Shown here piece after piece: positions 2,537 to 50,176 of a DNA stretch of 64,000 nucleotides. A model generated the notes under the pieces. The model was given only the letters and a program-made list of their open reading frames with translations. It ran no database searches and was not told where the DNA came from. Source of the DNA: an uncultured Gemmatimonadota bacterium (lineage in GTDB: Bacteria > JAAXHH01); NCBI GenBank assembly GCA_951812955.1, contig OX638340.1, positions 3,488,001 to 3,552,000 on the forward strand. Direction: 5' to 3'. The stretch's first letter is position 1; every line of letters starts with the position of its first letter. The position numbers were made by a program, and so were the translations under genes.

Positions 2537-5500
2537 ATGTTTTTCGAGTCCCGACGGACTTTTAGGCGGTTCGGACGCGCCCGCGTCCAGTTGCTCGTTT
2601 CCCTGTCCTTAATCCTTGCCCTATCCTTGCTCGTCACGTGCGCCAGGGACAACCCCACGCAGTCCCGGTCCGCGGTCACGGCCCGGGTCGTGGTCACGCC
2701 CGAGACCACGGACCTGGCATCGGCAGGACAGTCCGTGCTTCTCAGCGCCCAGGCGCTTGACGACGCCGGCCTGGAAGTCTCGGAGACTCCTGTCACCTGG
2801 CGCAGCAGCGACCCGTCCGTTGCAAGTGTGAGCAAGAACGGCGTGGTCATCGCTACCGGCGAAGGCAGCGTGGTCATAACGGCCATGGCCGGCCAGAAGA
2901 CGGGAAGCGCGCGGGTGACGGTGTCGGATCCGGTGAGGCGGGCCCTGGTCGCCCTGTACAGGGCCACGGGCGGCGAGAACTGGAAGAACAGCGCGAACTG
3001 GCTCAGCGATGAACCCGTTCAGAGATGGCATGGGGTGACAACCGCTGCCGCGGGTAGCGCGTCGGGAACGCGTCCGCGCGCCGATGCGGCTGGCGCGGCG
3101 CTGAATCTGCCCGACAACGGCCTGTCTGGTACGATCCCGCCGGAACTGGGCGACCTGGTCCATCTGCGCGAACTGGACCTGTCCAACAACGGGTTGACGG
3201 GATCGATTCCACCGGAACTGGGCAACCTGTTCCGGCTCGAATTGCTGGATCTCTCCGGTAACCGGTTGTCCGGACCTGTCCCTGCGGAACTGGGCAATTT
3301 GTTTGTCCTGAAGTCTCTGCAACTACAGGACAACGCCGGATTATCCGGTCCCCTTCCTGTTTCTTTCTCCGGCCTGACGGGTCTGGAGACCATGGACCTG
3401 TCGGGCACGGGATTGTGCGCGCCGGCGAACGCGGGGCTTCAGAGGTGGCTCGGAGGAGTGACGACAAGACGGGGCGTCGCGAACTGCGGAGCCGTTGCCG
3501 AACAGGACCGGAAGGCGCTGATCGCGCTGTACGAGACCACGGACGGCCCGAACTGGACGAACAAGACGAACTGGCTGAGCGGGGCCGCTCTCGACCGTTG
3601 GTACGGAGTCTCCACCAACGCGGAAGGGCGTGTAACCGCCCTGCGTCTTTCCGGCAACCGGCTGTCCGGACTCATTCCGACGGCGCTGGGCAACCTAGCC
3701 GCGCTGGTTTCCCTGGACCTCGGGAGCAATGAGCTTTCCGGTACCATACCCGGGGTGTTGGGCAACCTGTCCGCGCTGGTTTCTCTGGACCTGTCCGACA
3801 ACCGGCTGTCGGGACCGATCCCGACAGTCCTGCTCACCCTACATAATCTGCAGACGCTGGACCTGTCCGGCAACCTGTTCGATCTTGAGGAGTCCACGGA
3901 CCGCGACGCCCTGGTCGCCCTGTACAACGCCACAGACGGTCCGAACTGGGTGCGAAAAGACAACTGGCTGAGCGACAGGCCGCTGGGCGAATGGTACGGG
4001 GTGACTACAGACTCTACGGGGAGGGTGACGGAACTTAATCTATGGACTCTAGATGAAGATAACAGATCCGCTAGCAATGGGTTGGCAGGTAGTATCCCGC
4101 CAGAGTTGGGCAACCTGACTAAACTGACACAGCTGGATCTTCGTCGCAATAGGTTATCGGGTAGTATACCACCGGAATTGGGCAACCTGACCAAACTGAA
4201 AACTCTGAGCCTTTCCATCAACGAGTTGTCAGGCCGCATCCCACCGGAACTGGGCAACCTGACCAACCTGATCTGGTTGTGGCTCGACCGTAATCAGTTG
4301 TCAGGCCGCATCCCACCCGAACTAGGTAGCCTGATCAAGTTGGATCAACTGTGGTTACAAGGAAATCAGTTGTCAGGCAGTATTCCATCGGAACTGGGCA
4401 ACTTGAGTAGCCTGAGGCAGCTAGCTCTTATGTCCAGCGGTTTGTCGGGCAGTATACCAGCGGAACTGGGCCGCCTGACCAACCTGATCTGGTTGTGGCT
4501 CGAAGATAATCAACTGTCAGGCCGCATCCCTTCAGAGTTGGGCAATCTGACCCGCCTGGAATCCCTGAGTCTTAACGGAAATGAGTTATCGGGCAGTCTC
4601 CCTTCGGAGTTGGGCAACCTGAGCAACCTGAAACGCCTGTATCTTTTTGACAATACCAATCTGTCGGGTCCGCTGCCCGATTCATTCACTCATCTCAATA
4701 TCGCCAGCCTGTTTCTACGTGGCACGGGGTTGTGTGTGCCGACGGACGCCGCGTTCCAGGCGTGGCTGCAGGGAATCAGGAATAAGGATGGTGTGGTGAA
4801 CTGCACGCTCGCGACGGATGATCGCGACGCCCTGGTCGCCCTGTACAACGCCACCGACGGGCCGAACTGGCGGAACGGCAGGAACTGGCTGAGTGACAGG
4901 CCGCTCGAAGAGTGGTACGGGGTCTCCACCAACGCGGAAGGACGCGTGGACAGCCTGAAGCTATTAGGAAATCGGCTATCGGGCAGCATTTCATCGGAAT
5001 TGGGTAACCTGAGCAACCTGCAAGTCCTGGATCTTCAACGCAATACTGGTTTGTCAGGCAGCATCCCGCCGGAGTTGGGCAATCTGACCAACCTGGAAGT
5101 GCTTGAATTTGATAGAGTTCCTTTGTCAGGCAGCATCCCGCCGGAGTTGGGCAAATTGAGGAACCTGCGTTATCTGGGTCTTTCCCGTAACCAGTTGTCA
5201 GGCCAGGTCCCATCAGAGTTGGGAAACCTGACCAATCTGGAAGTTCTGTGGCTTCACTTCAACGCCAATCTGTCCGGTTCTCTGCCCGCGTCACTCACTG
5301 ATCTCGATAAACTCCGAATCGTGAATCTACGAGGAACCGGGTTGTGCGCGCCGACGGACGCTGCGTTCCAGGCATGGCTGCAGGGCATAGGGAGCAAGAG
5401 TGGTGTGGTGAACTGCGACCCGGTGGGCCCTGTCCCGGGGGACGACCGCGCCGTCCTGGTCGCCCTGTACAACGCCACGGACGGGCCGAACTGGCGGAAC

Positions 5501-49000: not shown

Positions 49001-50176
49001 GAGATCGATCCCGACAGGACGTTGGACTCCGCGCTCGGTATCGCCGGCCGCATCCCCGAGACGGGAAGGATTACGCCGGATGTGCGAGAGCTTCCGACCT
49101 TCGATCTGACGCTGATCCCTTTTTTATGGACAGAAGGTCCCGATCATTCCGTGTTGTCCGCAATCGAAGGGCTCACGCCGGAATCCGATCTGATGCGGCC
49201 GACCCGAGATCTGCTGCCGGTGAGCGACTTCCAGTTGTCGGTGCACGCGCCGGTATGGACTTCAGTGGATCCCGTATCCGATAACGTAGGCGATCTCGGA
49301 CCCGAATTGGAGGCCATCTATGCCCTTGAAGGAGAAACAGGCTACTATATGGGCATCTTCAGACTGGCCGGACCGCAGGGCGGACTACTGGGGATAGCTC
49401 AGGATATACCCAGCTACTTGAGTTTCTCCATCCTCGATCCTTACGTCATTGCACATGAACTGGGGCACAACCTGAATCTCTATCATGCGCCATGCGGCGG
49501 TGCTCGCGGCCCCGATCCGTTCTACCCATATGGGGATGGTTCCATTGGGGTTTCCGGATACGATATGATGAATGAATCCCTGGTGAGTCCGCAAACCTGG
49601 GACCTGATGAGTTATTGCGAACCGATGTGGATCAGCGACTATTCCTTTTCCAGGGCGTTGAGCCATCGAATCGCGCTGGGCGCTACGATCCCGCCGGCTT
49701 TTGCGGCCGTCACGAGAGGCCTGCTGGTCTGGGGGGGTCTGGACGAAGCCGGGGAACTCACCCTCGAGCCCGCCTTTGTAGTTGACGCGCCGCTTAAGCT
49801 GCCGGAATCCGATGGTCCGTATACCATCAGGGGAGAGCGCGAAGACGGCAGCAATCTGTTCTCACTTTCCTTTGCCATATCGGAATACGCCGATACCGAG
49901 GGAGGATCCTTCGCTTTCATTGTCCCCGTGCGGGAGACCTGGCCCGGAAACCTGCACCGTATAACGCTTTCCGGTCCCGGGGGGTTTGCCGAGATCGACG
50001 GAGACGGGGACCGTTACATGGCGCTCATGCGGGACAGCGTAACCGGCGAGGTCAGAGGCATTCTCAGAGACTGGCCTGATCCATCGGATACCTCGGCAGC
50101 GGGCCGGCGTATCCCGCCCGAACCCGGGATGGAAATAACAGTCAGCGGTGGTGTTCCCGATCGGGATTCGTGGTAG
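46064..50176 (+). CDS. Giant surface lipoprotein (1370 aa): 4 LRRNT-like/LRR cassettes with Cys C-caps plus C-terminal metzincin-like zinc metalloprotease; 58 nt downstream of the 41083 gene
   Basis: Lipobox [62 protein letters not shown] and DLMSYC. Tail [19 protein letters not shown]. Confidence 0.85.
   Translation: [1370 protein letters not shown]

Follow-up and report, generated by a model that had tools for sequence, protein, structure and literature searches.

Tandem self-capped LRR cassettes, some joined to a StcE-like protease module, in predicted lipoproteins of a Gemmatimonadota bacterium

Seven genes (A to G) in a 64,000-nucleotide stretch of DNA (the window) from an uncultured member of the Gemmatimonadota near Ca. 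Palauibacter encode modular proteins that we read, with somewhat better than even confidence, as exported, putatively lipid-anchored and surface-exposed LRR/CARDB recognition arrays with a tethered protease. In this model, Big_2 Ig-like domains would form a stalk, after which six of the proteins bear 1 to 10 autonomous LRR cassettes, each a SERK-sized mini-ectodomain with an N-terminal helix-plus-Trp cap (related to the plant LRRNT and Cys free), 3 to 12 repeats, and a strand-helix C-cap. The cassettes are strung like beads on linkers of 4 to 12 residues, with a predicted maximum of 10 separate concave binding faces per protein, and the targets would most plausibly be surface and matrix proteins of a host (a sponge or other invertebrate) or of neighboring cells. 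At the chain end of D, F, and G, a three-domain module with a metzincin core closest to the mucinase StcE (M66) would be brought to the bound targets by the LRR or CARDB arrays as a probably active, (glyco)protein-cleaving protease. The gene set constitutes a detailed, not previously dissected example of the "eukaryote-like" LRR proteins of sponge-symbiont genomes, in which tandem self-capped modules resemble miniature plant receptor ectodomains and a StcE-like zinc protease is joined to some of them.

The initial annotation of this DNA, which is partly confirmed in its observations and partly supported in its interpretation, described seven genes of one architecture. Six of its ORFs stand as drawn (Table 1), but gene E is not a single ORF; removal of one C from the run at its frameshift restores a reading frame (...SGATSLALSGSVSGRIDPGTDVDYF) that continues into the PPC domain. 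The single architecture is wrong because gene D is devoid of LRR cassettes; what the genes have in common is a set of modules and an export motif at the N terminus. Accordingly, one to ten cassettes are present in A, B, C, E, F, and G and none in D, and Big_2, also ascribed to every member, was matched in A to F but not in G. Pfam supported the Big_2, CARDB, PPC, and LRR_1/4/8/14 calls and, in D, F, and G, recognized a zinc site of the Peptidase_M66/Reprolysin kind. Three members thus end in a predicted Zn-metalloprotease module as annotated, and gene E has a PPC domain beyond the frameshift, although not as its last domain. Every one of the eight CARDB repeats of gene D contains a C-x13-C pair. 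With E included, the genes take up 28.1 kb (44% of the window), which bears out the figure of more than 27 kb. The gene B product is 100% identical to a protein encoded on a 3.81-Mb contig (P0001). A small lipoprotein gene is possibly associated with the set; its ortholog in the related locus L001 lies between the B and D orthologs, and L001 positions 13638 to 14311 match window positions 1552 to 2207 at 81% (blastn). Small lipoprotein paralogs near the gene set are decayed.

Table 1. Coordinates of the gene set and its modules within the window
Feature	Position	Strand	Description
Gene A	2537-9769	+	2410 aa; signal peptide (Cys35 within LVTCARDNPT); single Big_2; 10 LRR cassettes
Gene A cassette region	2933-9766	+	
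Gene A cassette 2	3500-3892	+	No C-cap
Gene B	9799-11454	+	551 aa; canonical lipobox LTSC-GKDSPT; two Big_2; one long cassette (10441-11445)
Gene C	20382-22145	-	587 aa; lipobox LVSC-GGG; Pro-rich linker; Big_2; two Big_9/PKD-like; cassette (20391-21128)
Gene D	14815-20364	-	1849 aa; LFTC-GKDSPT; Big_2; 8 CARDB; two Big_9/cadherin-like; M66-like module; no LRR
Gene D CARDB and Big_9/cadherin-like region	16324-19701	-	8 CARDB; two Big_9/cadherin-like
Gene D M66-like protease module	14818-16332	-	C-terminal; zinc motif HEFGHNLSLRH at 15502-15534
Gene E (interrupted)	36644-39482	+	LVTC-GRDTPT; Big_2; 3 cassettes; CARDB; frameshift; PPC
Gene E cassettes	37028-38551	+	3; second without C-cap
Gene E CARDB	38558-38881	+	
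Gene E +1 frameshift	38944-38947	+	CCCC run; ORFs split into 36602-38980 and 38910-39482
Gene E PPC	38991-39188	+	Followed by Gly-run and ~80-aa domain without family assignment
Gene F	41083-46005	+	1640 aa; LVTC-GKDSPT; two Big_2; 4 cassettes; M66-like protease module
Gene F cassettes	41779-44556	+	4; two minimal (125 aa)
Gene F M66-like protease module	44557-46002	+	HEIGHNINLYH at 45283-45315; DLMSYC at 45430-45447
Gene G	46064-50176	+	1370 aa; no Big_2; 4 cassettes (46289-48700); M66-like protease module
Gene G M66-like protease module	48701-50173	+	Zinc motif at 49454-49486
Small lipoprotein (possibly associated)	1474-2205	-	LAMGC-GGEK; Big_9/cadherin-like domain

The cassettes comprise 23 N-caps and 21 C-caps in all (N-caps/C-caps: A, 10/9; B, 1/1; C, 1/1; E, 3/2; F, 4/4; G, 4/4), and a degenerate DNA pattern for the N-cap gave 22 matches compared to 0 expected by chance. 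The LRR unit is 24 residues long, with exactly this spacing in 68 successive unit intervals, and its consensus (LxxLxLxxNxLSGxIPxELGxLxx) fits the plant-specific LRR class (PMC2946307), as had been proposed. The proposed 4 to 9 repeats per cassette was too narrow a range, since the numbers run from about 3 (the 125-residue F2, F3, G2, and G3) to about 12 (F4 and G4). The N-cap is cysteine free, as described, and lacks the Cys pair of plant LRRNT; outside the signal peptide, nearly every Cys of the LRR proteins lies within a C-cap pair spaced as C-x21-23-C. Both residues are invariant in the 21 C-caps (21/21), whereas the second cassettes of A and E, which have no C-cap, lack both, so the annotated two-Cys C-cap applies to all cassettes but these two. 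When homologs were surveyed with a C-cap motif defined without a Cys requirement, 494 of 511 motifs (392 homologs) had both Cys and 8 had one, at a spacing of 22 to 24. The pair probably forms a disulfide outside the cytoplasm. None of the Pfam families matches the C-cap.

The AF2 model of a cassette (pLDDT 98.2) has a helix at both ends, and all top 50 matches in a cassette fold search were plant proteins, led by SERK1 and SERK2. This predicted model aligned with whole SERK1/OsSERK2 ectodomains at TMq values of 0.76 to 0.82 and TMt values of 0.75 to 0.84, with 30 to 38% identity. In a PDB sequence search, the top ~40 entries were plant LRR receptor kinases, with GSO1 (3.7e-113), FLS2, and PEPR1 among them; bacterial structures began at about rank 41 with Leptospira LIC11098. 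NCBIfam internalin models scored 16 to 53 bits versus cutoffs of 1,100 to 1,600. These results support the view, already taken in the initial annotation, that the LRR modules belong with capped, plant-type units resembling ectodomains rather than with the internalin type.

The six concave x positions had a mean entropy of 3.36 bits, compared to 1.36 bits elsewhere. Orthologs were 32% (A) and 31% (B) identical at concave positions and 78% and 84% identical, respectively, at scaffold positions, with a dN/dS of 0.65 for the concave face versus 0.17 for the scaffold. Such fast divergence of the concave faces on a conserved scaffold therefore suggests a multivalent, diversifying ligand-recognition array; the concave-face dN/dS is below 1 with dS near saturation (0.7 to 1.3), and relaxed constraint accounts for the data equally well as diversifying selection. 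The overall dN/dS was 0.24 to 0.32 (0.24 for the gene D ortholog in L001, at 76% identity), and a related 3.18-Mb genome shows synteny at this locus, both of which we count in favor of functional genes.

Within the protease module, no variation is seen at the three His zinc ligands, the catalytic Glu, or a Met-turn-like Met, and the metzincin motif HExxHxxGxxH carries N or S in place of Gly. A PDB sequence search detected no relatives of the module. Assignment as a metzincin-like protease, closest to StcE (family M66), is supported, in agreement with the earlier call. Because the His, Glu, and Met residues are invariant, the module would be a tethered, probably active protease delivered to bound targets. 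The arrays might instead serve nutrient acquisition rather than host recognition, capturing glycoprotein or matrix food (sponge mesohyl, mucus, or detritus) for tethered proteases, with A, B, and C as accessory binders, a possibility to which we give a minor but appreciable weight. It would suit the StcE-like metzincin at the end of three of the seven proteins, the other hydrolases encoded nearby in the window (M14 carboxypeptidase, phosphodiesterase, and ceramidase-like and phytase-like proteins), and the enrichment of sponge symbionts for host-polymer degradation plus attachment domains (PMC8163846); however, four of the seven proteins lack the catalytic domain, including the 2,410-residue gene A product, and ten distinct, fast-evolving concave faces exceed the needs of a bulk-substrate binder. 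The nutritional reading overlaps with that of recognition arrays, and purpose is the chief difference.

The family had been called lineage specific, but at least 119 genome stretches contain the N-cap, with about 10 phyla among the matches listed, and the two-Cys C-cap is present in several phyla. Among the best 150 cluster representatives (50% identity), 107 have at least 2 C-caps and 61 have an M66-type zinc motif. An Omp85 neighbor is 79 to 80% identical to proteins of Gemmatimonadetes MAGs, and homologs were found in Ca. Palauibacter and the MAG series SB06xx and RHO, as well as in Latescibacterota, Dehalococcoidia, and Acidobacteriota. LRR eukaryote-like proteins (ELPs) are enriched in sponge-associated MAGs of the homolog-bearing phyla (PMC8163846), and their enrichment in and lateral exchange among sponge symbionts have been established by Pfam counts (PMC8163846, PMC11706023); Palauibacterales habitats include sediments and saline soils, too (PMC10469786). 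The assertion that the cassette grammar is undescribed holds insofar as we found no paper describing it or an LRR-M66 fusion, but the broader LRR class is established and relatives are automatically annotated as "Ig-like domain-containing protein" or "M66 family metalloprotease."

Each protein was also said to have a lipobox. A leader with a Cys is indeed present, and in six of the seven proteins the hydrophobic stretch is followed by a conserved C[GA][KR]D[SNT]PT, with ACGKDS, TCGKDS, and similar sequences recurring in homologs; position -1, however, is canonical (A/G/S) only in B and C, with T in A, D, E, and F and R in G. Judging from this leader, the seven proteins are Sec exported and probably lipid anchored, the Cys is the presumed acylation site, and the K/R-D that follows may be a surface-sorting signal. 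They could also face the periplasm if Gemmatimonadota do not flip lipoproteins to the surface. We consider it improbable that the proteins are periplasmic or inner-leaflet lipoproteins, or are released by signal peptidase I, with an envelope-internal, bacterium-bacterium, or phage-related role (decoys or biofilm adhesins) and no eukaryotic host contact. Five of the seven lipoboxes have a noncanonical residue at -1, which would be explained in this way, and N-cap PS-LRR proteins are also encoded by genomes of free-living and gut Bacteroidota, Spirosoma, Puia, and CPR; on the other hand, proteins located at the cell surface or secreted typically have such lengths (1,400 to 2,400 residues), Ig-like stalks, and domains of the CARDB, cadherin-like, and PPC types, and the C-cap-bearing form is concentrated in typical sponge-symbiont lineages.

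It is very unlikely that the proteins are LRR effectors injected into host cells, comparable to XopAC, XopL, and XopAE of Xanthomonas or the LRR effectors of Yersinia and Salmonella. XopAE, XopAC, and XopL were the best NCBIfam LRR matches, and ELPs are often viewed as intracellular modulators (PMC8163846), but the Xop scores fall 4 to 10 times below the family cutoffs, the leaders are of the Sec type with a conserved Cys, the paired cysteines fit an oxidizing compartment, no secretion-system genes were found within the window, and most sponge MAGs lack such systems (Robbins et al., PMC8163846). An artifact or junk origin (assembly-made repeat expansion, decaying pseudogenes, or recent plant or alga contamination or transfer) is largely refuted and hardly credible, since the gene E frameshift, the decayed lipoprotein paralogs, and the GC content of the LRR genes (0.55 to 0.58 versus 0.60 to 0.68 in the flanks) are outweighed by the 60 to 82% mutual DNA identity of the gene A cassettes, which marks them as old copies and not an assembly artifact, by intact ORFs of up to 7.2 kb, by the low dN/dS and the syntenic ortholog locus, by in-frame fusion of the LRRs with bacterial Big_2, CARDB, and lipobox elements, and by an identity to plant proteins of just 30 to 38%.

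The putatively lipid-anchored recognition arrays that we favor share their repeat consensus (LxxLxLxxNxL(s/t)GxIPxxLGxLxx) with the ectodomains of plant LRR receptor kinases and co-receptors (SERK1/BAK1, FLS2, GSO1, and PGIP); in the predicted model, a single cassette superposes on a whole SERK ectodomain with both ends included, and in both groups it is the concave face that collects most of the variable residues. In the N-cap, the stretch NWLSD..EWYGV can be aligned with W..C.W.GV.C of the plant LRRNT but lacks its Cys pair, and Pfam LRRNT_2, the model expected for this cap, gave no match even at E <= 10. The Cys pair of plant C-caps is more closely spaced than that of the cassettes, which lies around a helix at C-x22-24-C. 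Unlike plant receptors, the cassette proteins have up to 10 tandem cassettes per chain, no transmembrane helix, no kinase, a bacterial lipoprotein-type leader as anchor, and fusions to Big_2, CARDB, and protease modules. Of the Pfam models, only LRR_10 (PF18805) could be aligned with the N-cap (profile 10 to 67 versus cap residues 2 to 49), scoring 44.6 bits for whole protein A against a cutoff of 30 and 18.8 to 22 bits, below the cutoff, for single caps; the C-cap and the cassette organization lie outside its coverage. The ELPs/ELRs of sponge symbionts are likewise LRR rich and show enrichment in, and lateral exchange among, Gemmatimonadota, Latescibacterota, Acidobacteriota, Chloroflexota, and others (PMC8163846, PMC11706023), and homologs of the window proteins come from the same lineages and MAG series; that class is defined by Pfam counts (PF00560, PF12799, and PF13855), and in its literature we did not find the cap-LRR-cap cassette, its arrangement in tandem, a leader of the lipoprotein type, or fusion to M66 described. 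Listeria internalins and the Leptospira LRR lipoproteins LIC11098 and LIC10831 are surface-associated bacterial LRR proteins that likewise have a cap at the N terminus or Ig-like domains as partners, but differ in repeat class and length, and the two Leptospira proteins, which head the bacterial structures in the PDB search, stand below the ~40 plant structures. The Xanthomonas type III effectors XopAC/AvrAC, XopAE, and XopL matched better than internalins, although far below their cutoffs (e.g., 168 bits versus 600); they are cytosolic, lack signal peptides and Cys-capped cassettes, and carry other effector domains. Finally, StcE of E. coli O157:H7 leaves the cell through a type II system as a free enzyme, whereas the D/F/G module, which is only 14% identical to it and is covered by the M66 HMM over only 70 of 306 positions (183 to 252), forms part of a chain with LRR or CARDB arrays and a leader of the lipoprotein type.

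The window, a piece of diderm bacterial chromosome with a GC content of ~0.60, carries seven genes for large exported proteins (A to G), six of which contain capped leucine-rich-repeat (LRR) cassettes of the plant-specific type. Translation and motif parsing recovered the open reading frames (ORFs) that the initial annotation had claimed, and the seven genes occupied 28.1 kb (44% of the window), in agreement with the predicted >27 kb. In total, 23 LRR cassettes, each composed of an N-cap, 24-residue LRRs and a C-cap, were assigned to the six genes by the same approach (see the table), and the ten cassettes of A bore out the proposed repetition of cap, LRRs and Cys cap up to 10 times. 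However, one architecture for all seven proteins was not found: D lacked any LRR when these were looked for, and G had no Pfam match to Big_2. Each of the eight CARDB repeats of D contained one C-x13-C pair. E had been treated as a single gene but comprised two ORFs, because one surplus C in the C run 38944-38947 puts its two parts in different frames. Deleting one C of this run gave ...SGATSLALSGSVSGRIDPGTDVDYF, continuous into the PPC domain; the frameshift is either true or a homopolymer sequencing error. Behind the PPC domain and eight consecutive Gly, E ended in a beta-rich tail of ~80 aa with one Cys pair (CVAGLVVNPGESC...), for which Pfam gave no match.

Window positions of the seven genes and of neighboring features
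Feature	Position	Strand	Description
A	2537-9769	+	ten LRR cassettes
B	9799-11454	+	one LRR cassette
C	20382-22145	-	one LRR cassette
D	14815-20364	-	Big_2, eight CARDB, two Big_9/cadherin-like domains, protease module
E	36644-39482	+	three LRR cassettes
E tail	39189-39482	+
F	41083-46005	+	four LRR cassettes, protease module
G	46064-50176	+	four LRR cassettes, protease module
Hybrid kinase/regulator ORF	33-1259	+	HATPase_c, response-regulator receiver and OmpR-type Trans_reg_C on a single chain
Small-lipoprotein paralogs	12451-14025	+	three in tandem
Small-lipoprotein paralog 1	12451-13164	+	intact
Small-lipoprotein paralog 2	13236-13526	+	truncated; C-terminal remnant in other frame
Small-lipoprotein paralog 3	TAG at 13786-13788	+	in-frame stop replacing conserved Gln codon
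Low-GC island	22001-24000		GC 0.474 versus ~0.60
235-aa ORF without family match	22272-22979	-	inside low-GC island
OMP beta-barrel gene	23025-23600	-	inside low-GC island
Omp85-family protein	28830-31628	-	932 aa
SelA-like and AIR-synthase-family genes	33412-36014	+	adjoining

The repeat unit was 24 residues long (68 consecutive spacings were exactly 24) with the consensus LxxLxLxxNxLSGxIPxELGxLxx. Residue frequencies were L1.85, L4.94, L6.91, N9.93, L11.93 and S12.75 in the first half and G13 1.0, I15.91, P16.99, L19.91, G20.87 and L22.94 in the second. Length and consensus satisfied the definition of the plant-specific (PS) LRR class, which has 23 to 25 residues and the pattern LxxLxLxxNxL(t/s)GxIPxxLGxLxx (PMC2946307), and the assignment to this class was thereby upheld. 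The number of LRRs per cassette ranged from ~3 to 12, exceeding the 4-9 claimed before. When one cassette was used as a phmmer query against the PDB, the best ~40 matches were all plant LRR receptor kinases (GSO1 at 3.7e-113, FLS2, RGFR, PEPR1, MIK2, ERL1, HAESA, BRI1, TDR and PSKR1), and the first bacterial structure, Leptospira LIC11098, ranked below them. The repeats of internalins belong to a shorter class of ~22 residues and are accompanied by an inter-repeat Ig-like region. The NCBIfam internalin A/K and NEAT-LRR models reached 16-53 bits against cutoffs of 1100-1600 and were outscored by models of the plant-like Xanthomonas effectors XopAE, XopAC and XopL; all of these scores were far under their cutoffs. 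An internalin-type identity was ruled out by the 24-residue PS repeat and the family scores, and the initial view that these are not ordinary internalin-type LRRs was sustained by the low internalin scores, the PS repeat and the plant relatives in the PDB.

The N-caps contained no Cys, as had been described. Their DNA pattern (T.G..W....NW........W.G[VI]) matched 22 times in the window compared to 0 matches in 100 shuffles. In the phmmer PDB alignments, the plant LRRNT (W..C.W.GV.C...G.V) lay opposite the latter half of the N-cap (NWLSD..EWYGV...GRV), with other residues at the plant Cys positions (C.W.GV.C became E.W.GV.T). A check against LRRNT_2 (PF08263), suggested with the original domain calls, gave no match for whole proteins at E<=0.01 and none for isolated caps at E<=10; membership of the N-cap in this family was ruled out by the absent profile match and the absent Cys pair. 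LRR_10 (PF18805, gathering cutoff of 30 bits) was the sole Pfam model that aligned to the N-cap, with 44.6 bits for the whole of A and 18.8 and 22.0 bits for single caps. No Pfam family matched the C-cap. The two-Cys C-cap reported for every cassette was present in 21 of the 23, but the second cassettes of A and E lacked the C-cap and both Cys.

The fourth cassette of A (200 aa) was modeled by AlphaFold2 using an alignment of 21 paralogous cassettes. In the model (mean pLDDT of 98.2), a regular solenoid followed an N-terminal helix, and the chain closed with a strand-helix-strand unit that held both cysteines. The modeled N-cap, helical over residues 2-11 and with a strand over 35-37, was structurally equivalent to the plant LRRNT, in which a helix and a short strand cap the first repeat. 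A Foldseek search against the PDB returned plant proteins without exception among the top 50. The best folds were the complete ectodomains of the co-receptors SERK1, SERK2 and OsSERK2 (TM of 0.76-0.84 by either partner, 30-38% identity), and full-length superposition on SERK1 gave a TMt of 0.81-0.84. Since the model superposes on complete SERK ectodomains, the cassette constitutes a SERK-sized, doubly capped mini-ectodomain. Only 4-12 residues link a C-cap Cys to the following N-cap, and we therefore infer that the multi-cassette proteins resemble beads on a string and not a continuous solenoid. Both C-cap Cys were invariant in 21 of 21 cassettes. When 392 homologs were searched without demanding Cys, 511 C-cap motifs were found, 494 with both Cys (at a spacing of 22-24), 8 with one and 9 with none. 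This sequence pattern supports a disulfide in the C-cap.

Three members (D, F and G) end in a Zn-metalloprotease domain, as had been stated. Their C-terminal ~480 residues were homologous (50-51% identity), and across 33 sequences the zinc ligands and catalytic Glu (H243, E244, H247 and H253) as well as a downstream Met and Tyr (M294 and Y296) were invariant. The zinc motif reads HE[IFL]GHN[IL][NS]L[YR]H, so that the Gly of HExxHxxGxxH is replaced by N in F and G and by S in D. Peptidase_M66 (PF10462, cutoff of 20.6 bits) scored 25.5 bits on the isolated F module over profile positions 183-252 of 306; whole proteins gave 23.2 (F), 20.7 (D) and 18.7 bits (G), with 70 of the 306 positions aligned. 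Pfam Reprolysin matched the module weakly, and no PDB chain was detectable by sequence. The fold was closest to StcE and was that of a metzincin catalytic domain, including a Met-turn beneath the zinc site. The Met-turn and the fold supported the metzincin-like assignment; the zinc motif agreed with it in the three invariant His and the Glu and departed from it at the Gly position. Beta-sandwich domains flank this module, which we class as a divergent M66-like metzincin and whose relatives the NCBI pipeline names 'M66 family metalloprotease'.

The claim of a lipobox in each protein was scored with a canonical definition ([LVI][ASTVI][GAS]-C after n-region and h-region). B (LTSC) and C (LVSC) were canonical, whereas position -1 was occupied by T in A, D, E and F and by R in G. 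The commonest -1 residue of the homologs was A (ACGKDS). C-[GA]-[KR]-D-x-P-T behind a hydrophobic leader was common to six of the seven proteins and recurred among homologs. The K/R-D after the Cys forms a charge pattern that we take to be similar to the lipoprotein export signal of Bacteroidota, which likewise belong to the FCB group.

L001, a stretch from a related 3.18-Mb genome, was syntenic with the window locus and 74-82% identical to it in DNA. The L001 locus encodes a 2241-aa giant, a 610-aa Big_2-LRR, a 1768-aa CARDB-M66 and a 490-aa Big_2-LRR protein and differs from the window by one rearrangement and one extra CAP-domain gene. The latter (L001 12271-12657), of the CAP/cysteine-rich-secretory-protein family (PF00188), carries a eukaryote-like domain. 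The ortholog of window gene 1474-2205 lies at L001 13581-14309 between the orthologs of B and D, which indicates that the locus was rearranged. Compared to the L001 orthologs, A, B, C and D showed an overall dN/dS of 0.24-0.32 and are thus maintained, working genes. We then considered the concave positions, defined as the six solvent-exposed x of LxxLxLxxNx, in the 98 repeats of the window; their mean entropy was 3.36 bits versus 1.36 elsewhere. Ortholog identity was 32% (A) and 31% (B) at concave positions versus 78% and 84% in the scaffold, and pooled dN/dS was 0.65 for concave and 0.17 for scaffold codons, where the A-ortholog alignment behind dN/dS may pair non-orthologous cassettes. The putative binding face shows fast evolution; positive selection is unproven, because the ratio is below 1 and dS (0.7-1.3) is saturated.

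The surroundings provided further observations. Directly upstream of the locus, a hybrid kinase/regulator of unusual composition is probably cut by the window start. The three small-lipoprotein paralogs share the motifs ...GVLQDLGF... and ...F..LSKS[IV]FL[ED]A...; the truncation and the TAG indicate real gene decay at the locus, the TAG showing decay by substitution besides indels. The low-GC island, which separates the C/D pair from the following operon, may be foreign DNA. The LRR-cassette genes (4001-12000 and 40001-50000) had a GC content of 0.55-0.58, 4-10 points under the flanking housekeeping DNA (0.60-0.68), a drop not seen in the CARDB-rich D (0.60-0.62); amino-acid composition or foreign origin could account for it. 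The SelA-like (PF03841) gene and its AIR-synthase-family (possibly SelD-like) neighbor hint at selenium metabolism. No tRNA-Sec, no other tRNA and no Rfam element was found in the 64-kb window.

The genome is that of a member of the Gemmatimonadota; the Omp85-family neighbor shared 79-80% identity with proteins under the name of Gemmatimonadetes MAGs. Homologs of this protein labeled Candidatus Poribacteria, another sponge-symbiont phylum, were 53% identical, unexpectedly close across phyla for an envelope-biogenesis-type protein. For B and for the protease, the homologs with organism names came from Gemmatimonadota MAGs and Candidatus Palauibacter. The relatives include Ca. Palauibacter irciniicola and RHO and SB06xx MAGs, the last of which are presumably from Ircinia, judging by the species name irciniicola. 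Palauibacter species take their names from two sponges, Ircinia and Rhopaloeides, and from the coral Porites, and it is in sponges and marine sediments that their order reaches its highest abundance.

More than 7,988 proteins matched B at E<1e-5. Among the best 150 representatives (50%-identity clusters) of a C-cap profile search, 141 had the N-cap, 120 at least one C-cap, 107 at least two, 13 at least five, and 61 an M66-type zinc motif; the 40,068 proteins obtained at E<=1e-3 are inflated by summed LRR matches and do not represent a C-cap census. For the N-cap, a degenerate DNA pattern validated on the window was run over GTDB species-representative genomes and matched at least 119 stretches. 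The matches listed included Gemmatimonadota (with Longimicrobiales), Chloroflexota (Dehalococcoidia and Caldilineaceae), Latescibacterota, Acidobacteriota, Bacteroidota, Rhodothermales, Thermodesulfobacteriota, Gammaproteobacteria and CPR. Among these listed matches, a two-Cys C-cap stood beside the N-cap mainly in Gemmatimonadota/Longimicrobiales, Latescibacterota and some Dehalococcoidia, and also in Thermodesulfobacteriota, Gammaproteobacteria, Terriglobia and Thermoanaerobaculia; it was found in none of the Bacteroidota loci and was missing from most Caldilineaceae loci. The proposal of a lineage-specific system therefore did not hold, as the listed matches place the N-cap in many phyla and the two-Cys C-cap in several. 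An M66-like module beside capped LRRs occurred, again among the matches listed, in many Gemmatimonadota (including Ca. Palauibacter irciniicola), one Latescibacterota MAG and one Terriglobia MAG. The Latescibacterota module (L035 598-2058, OZ244744.1) was 51% identical to that of F, while most Gemmatimonadota copies reached 36-48%. This closeness to F suggests cross-phylum transfer. The CARDB repeats of another Latescibacterota stretch (L051, OZ240239.1) had ~75% nucleotide identity to those of E. Both identities point to an exchange of M66-like and CARDB modules across phyla.

In the mechanism that we propose, the proteins would be exported through Sec, would probably receive an acyl group on the conserved Cys and would be presented at the cell surface, with the Big_2 domains serving as putative spacers between membrane and array. 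Each capped cassette would offer one concave binding face, up to ten per chain, allowing multivalent or polyspecific binding. The binding array of D, F and G would carry a tethered StcE-like metzincin that is predicted to be active. The most plausible targets would be surface proteins of host or neighboring cells and matrix glycoproteins, given the action of StcE-type enzymes and the ecology of the relatives. Nutrient harvesting, the alternative that survives best, overlaps strongly with this mechanism. A periplasmic or inter-bacterial role comes next. Injection as effectors fares worse, as the repeat class, the family scores and the signal peptides rule out a T3SS-effector reading, even with Xop models scoring above the internalin models. 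An artefact is the weakest alternative: the cassettes of A are 60-82% identical in DNA and hence old copies, which rules out both assembly artefact and recent amplification.

A further scenario appears improbable to us in its entirety. The capped PS-LRR cassette would be an ancient mobile bacterial recognition module, traded among symbiont phyla and joined into tandem arrays, with selection by the host driving the diversification of their concave faces. Such arrays, some with a tethered StcE-like protease, would be to bacteria what LRR-RLP repertoires are to plants or VLR repertoires to lampreys, and would be displayed via the lipoprotein pathway. The cassette would also be directly related by descent to the plant LRR-RLK/SERK ectodomain, through a bacterial origin or an ancient transfer between domains of life. 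Display by this pathway, if true, would answer how sponge symbionts present eukaryote-like proteins (ELPs) without dedicated secretion systems.

In the genomes of symbionts of sponges and other invertebrates, LRR ELPs rank among the signatures cited most often. Their treatment so far has consisted of counting Pfam domains, without tested function or known export route (PMC8163846, PMC11706023), and Robbins et al. considered the export route unclear since dedicated secretion systems are missing from most MAGs (PMC8163846). The locus gives ELPs a concrete anatomy of lipoprotein-type leader, Ig-like stalk, autonomous SERK-like cassettes whose C-cap is probably disulfide-stapled and, in some, a StcE-like metzincin, and thereby allows hypotheses about a vague category to be tested. 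Cassettes of 125-200 aa with very-high-confidence models are fit for expression and pull-downs, and the protease module is assayable on mucin-like substrates. The SERK-like fold and the wide bacterial occurrence of the Cys-free N-cap bear on the origin of plant-type extracellular LRRs.

The LRR proteins of the window probably belong to a broad known class, the LRR ELPs of symbiont genomes, and the LRR domains of sponge-symbiont ELPs (PF00560, PF12799 and PF13855) were present in them by Pfam. What appears to be new is the tandem arrangement of autonomous cassettes of N-cap, PS-LRRs and two-Cys C-cap, with a lipoprotein-type leader and recurrent fusion to M66-like and CARDB modules. The claim that this cassette grammar is undescribed stood in part: literature searches found no description of the architecture, but close homologs are in databases under automatic names. 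The proteins are unlike internalins. Plant LRR ectodomains are the closer parallel: they share the PS-LRR class with the window cassettes, which are predicted to work likewise, and differ in the Cys pair that flanks W.GV in plant LRRNT_2 caps and is absent from the window N-caps.
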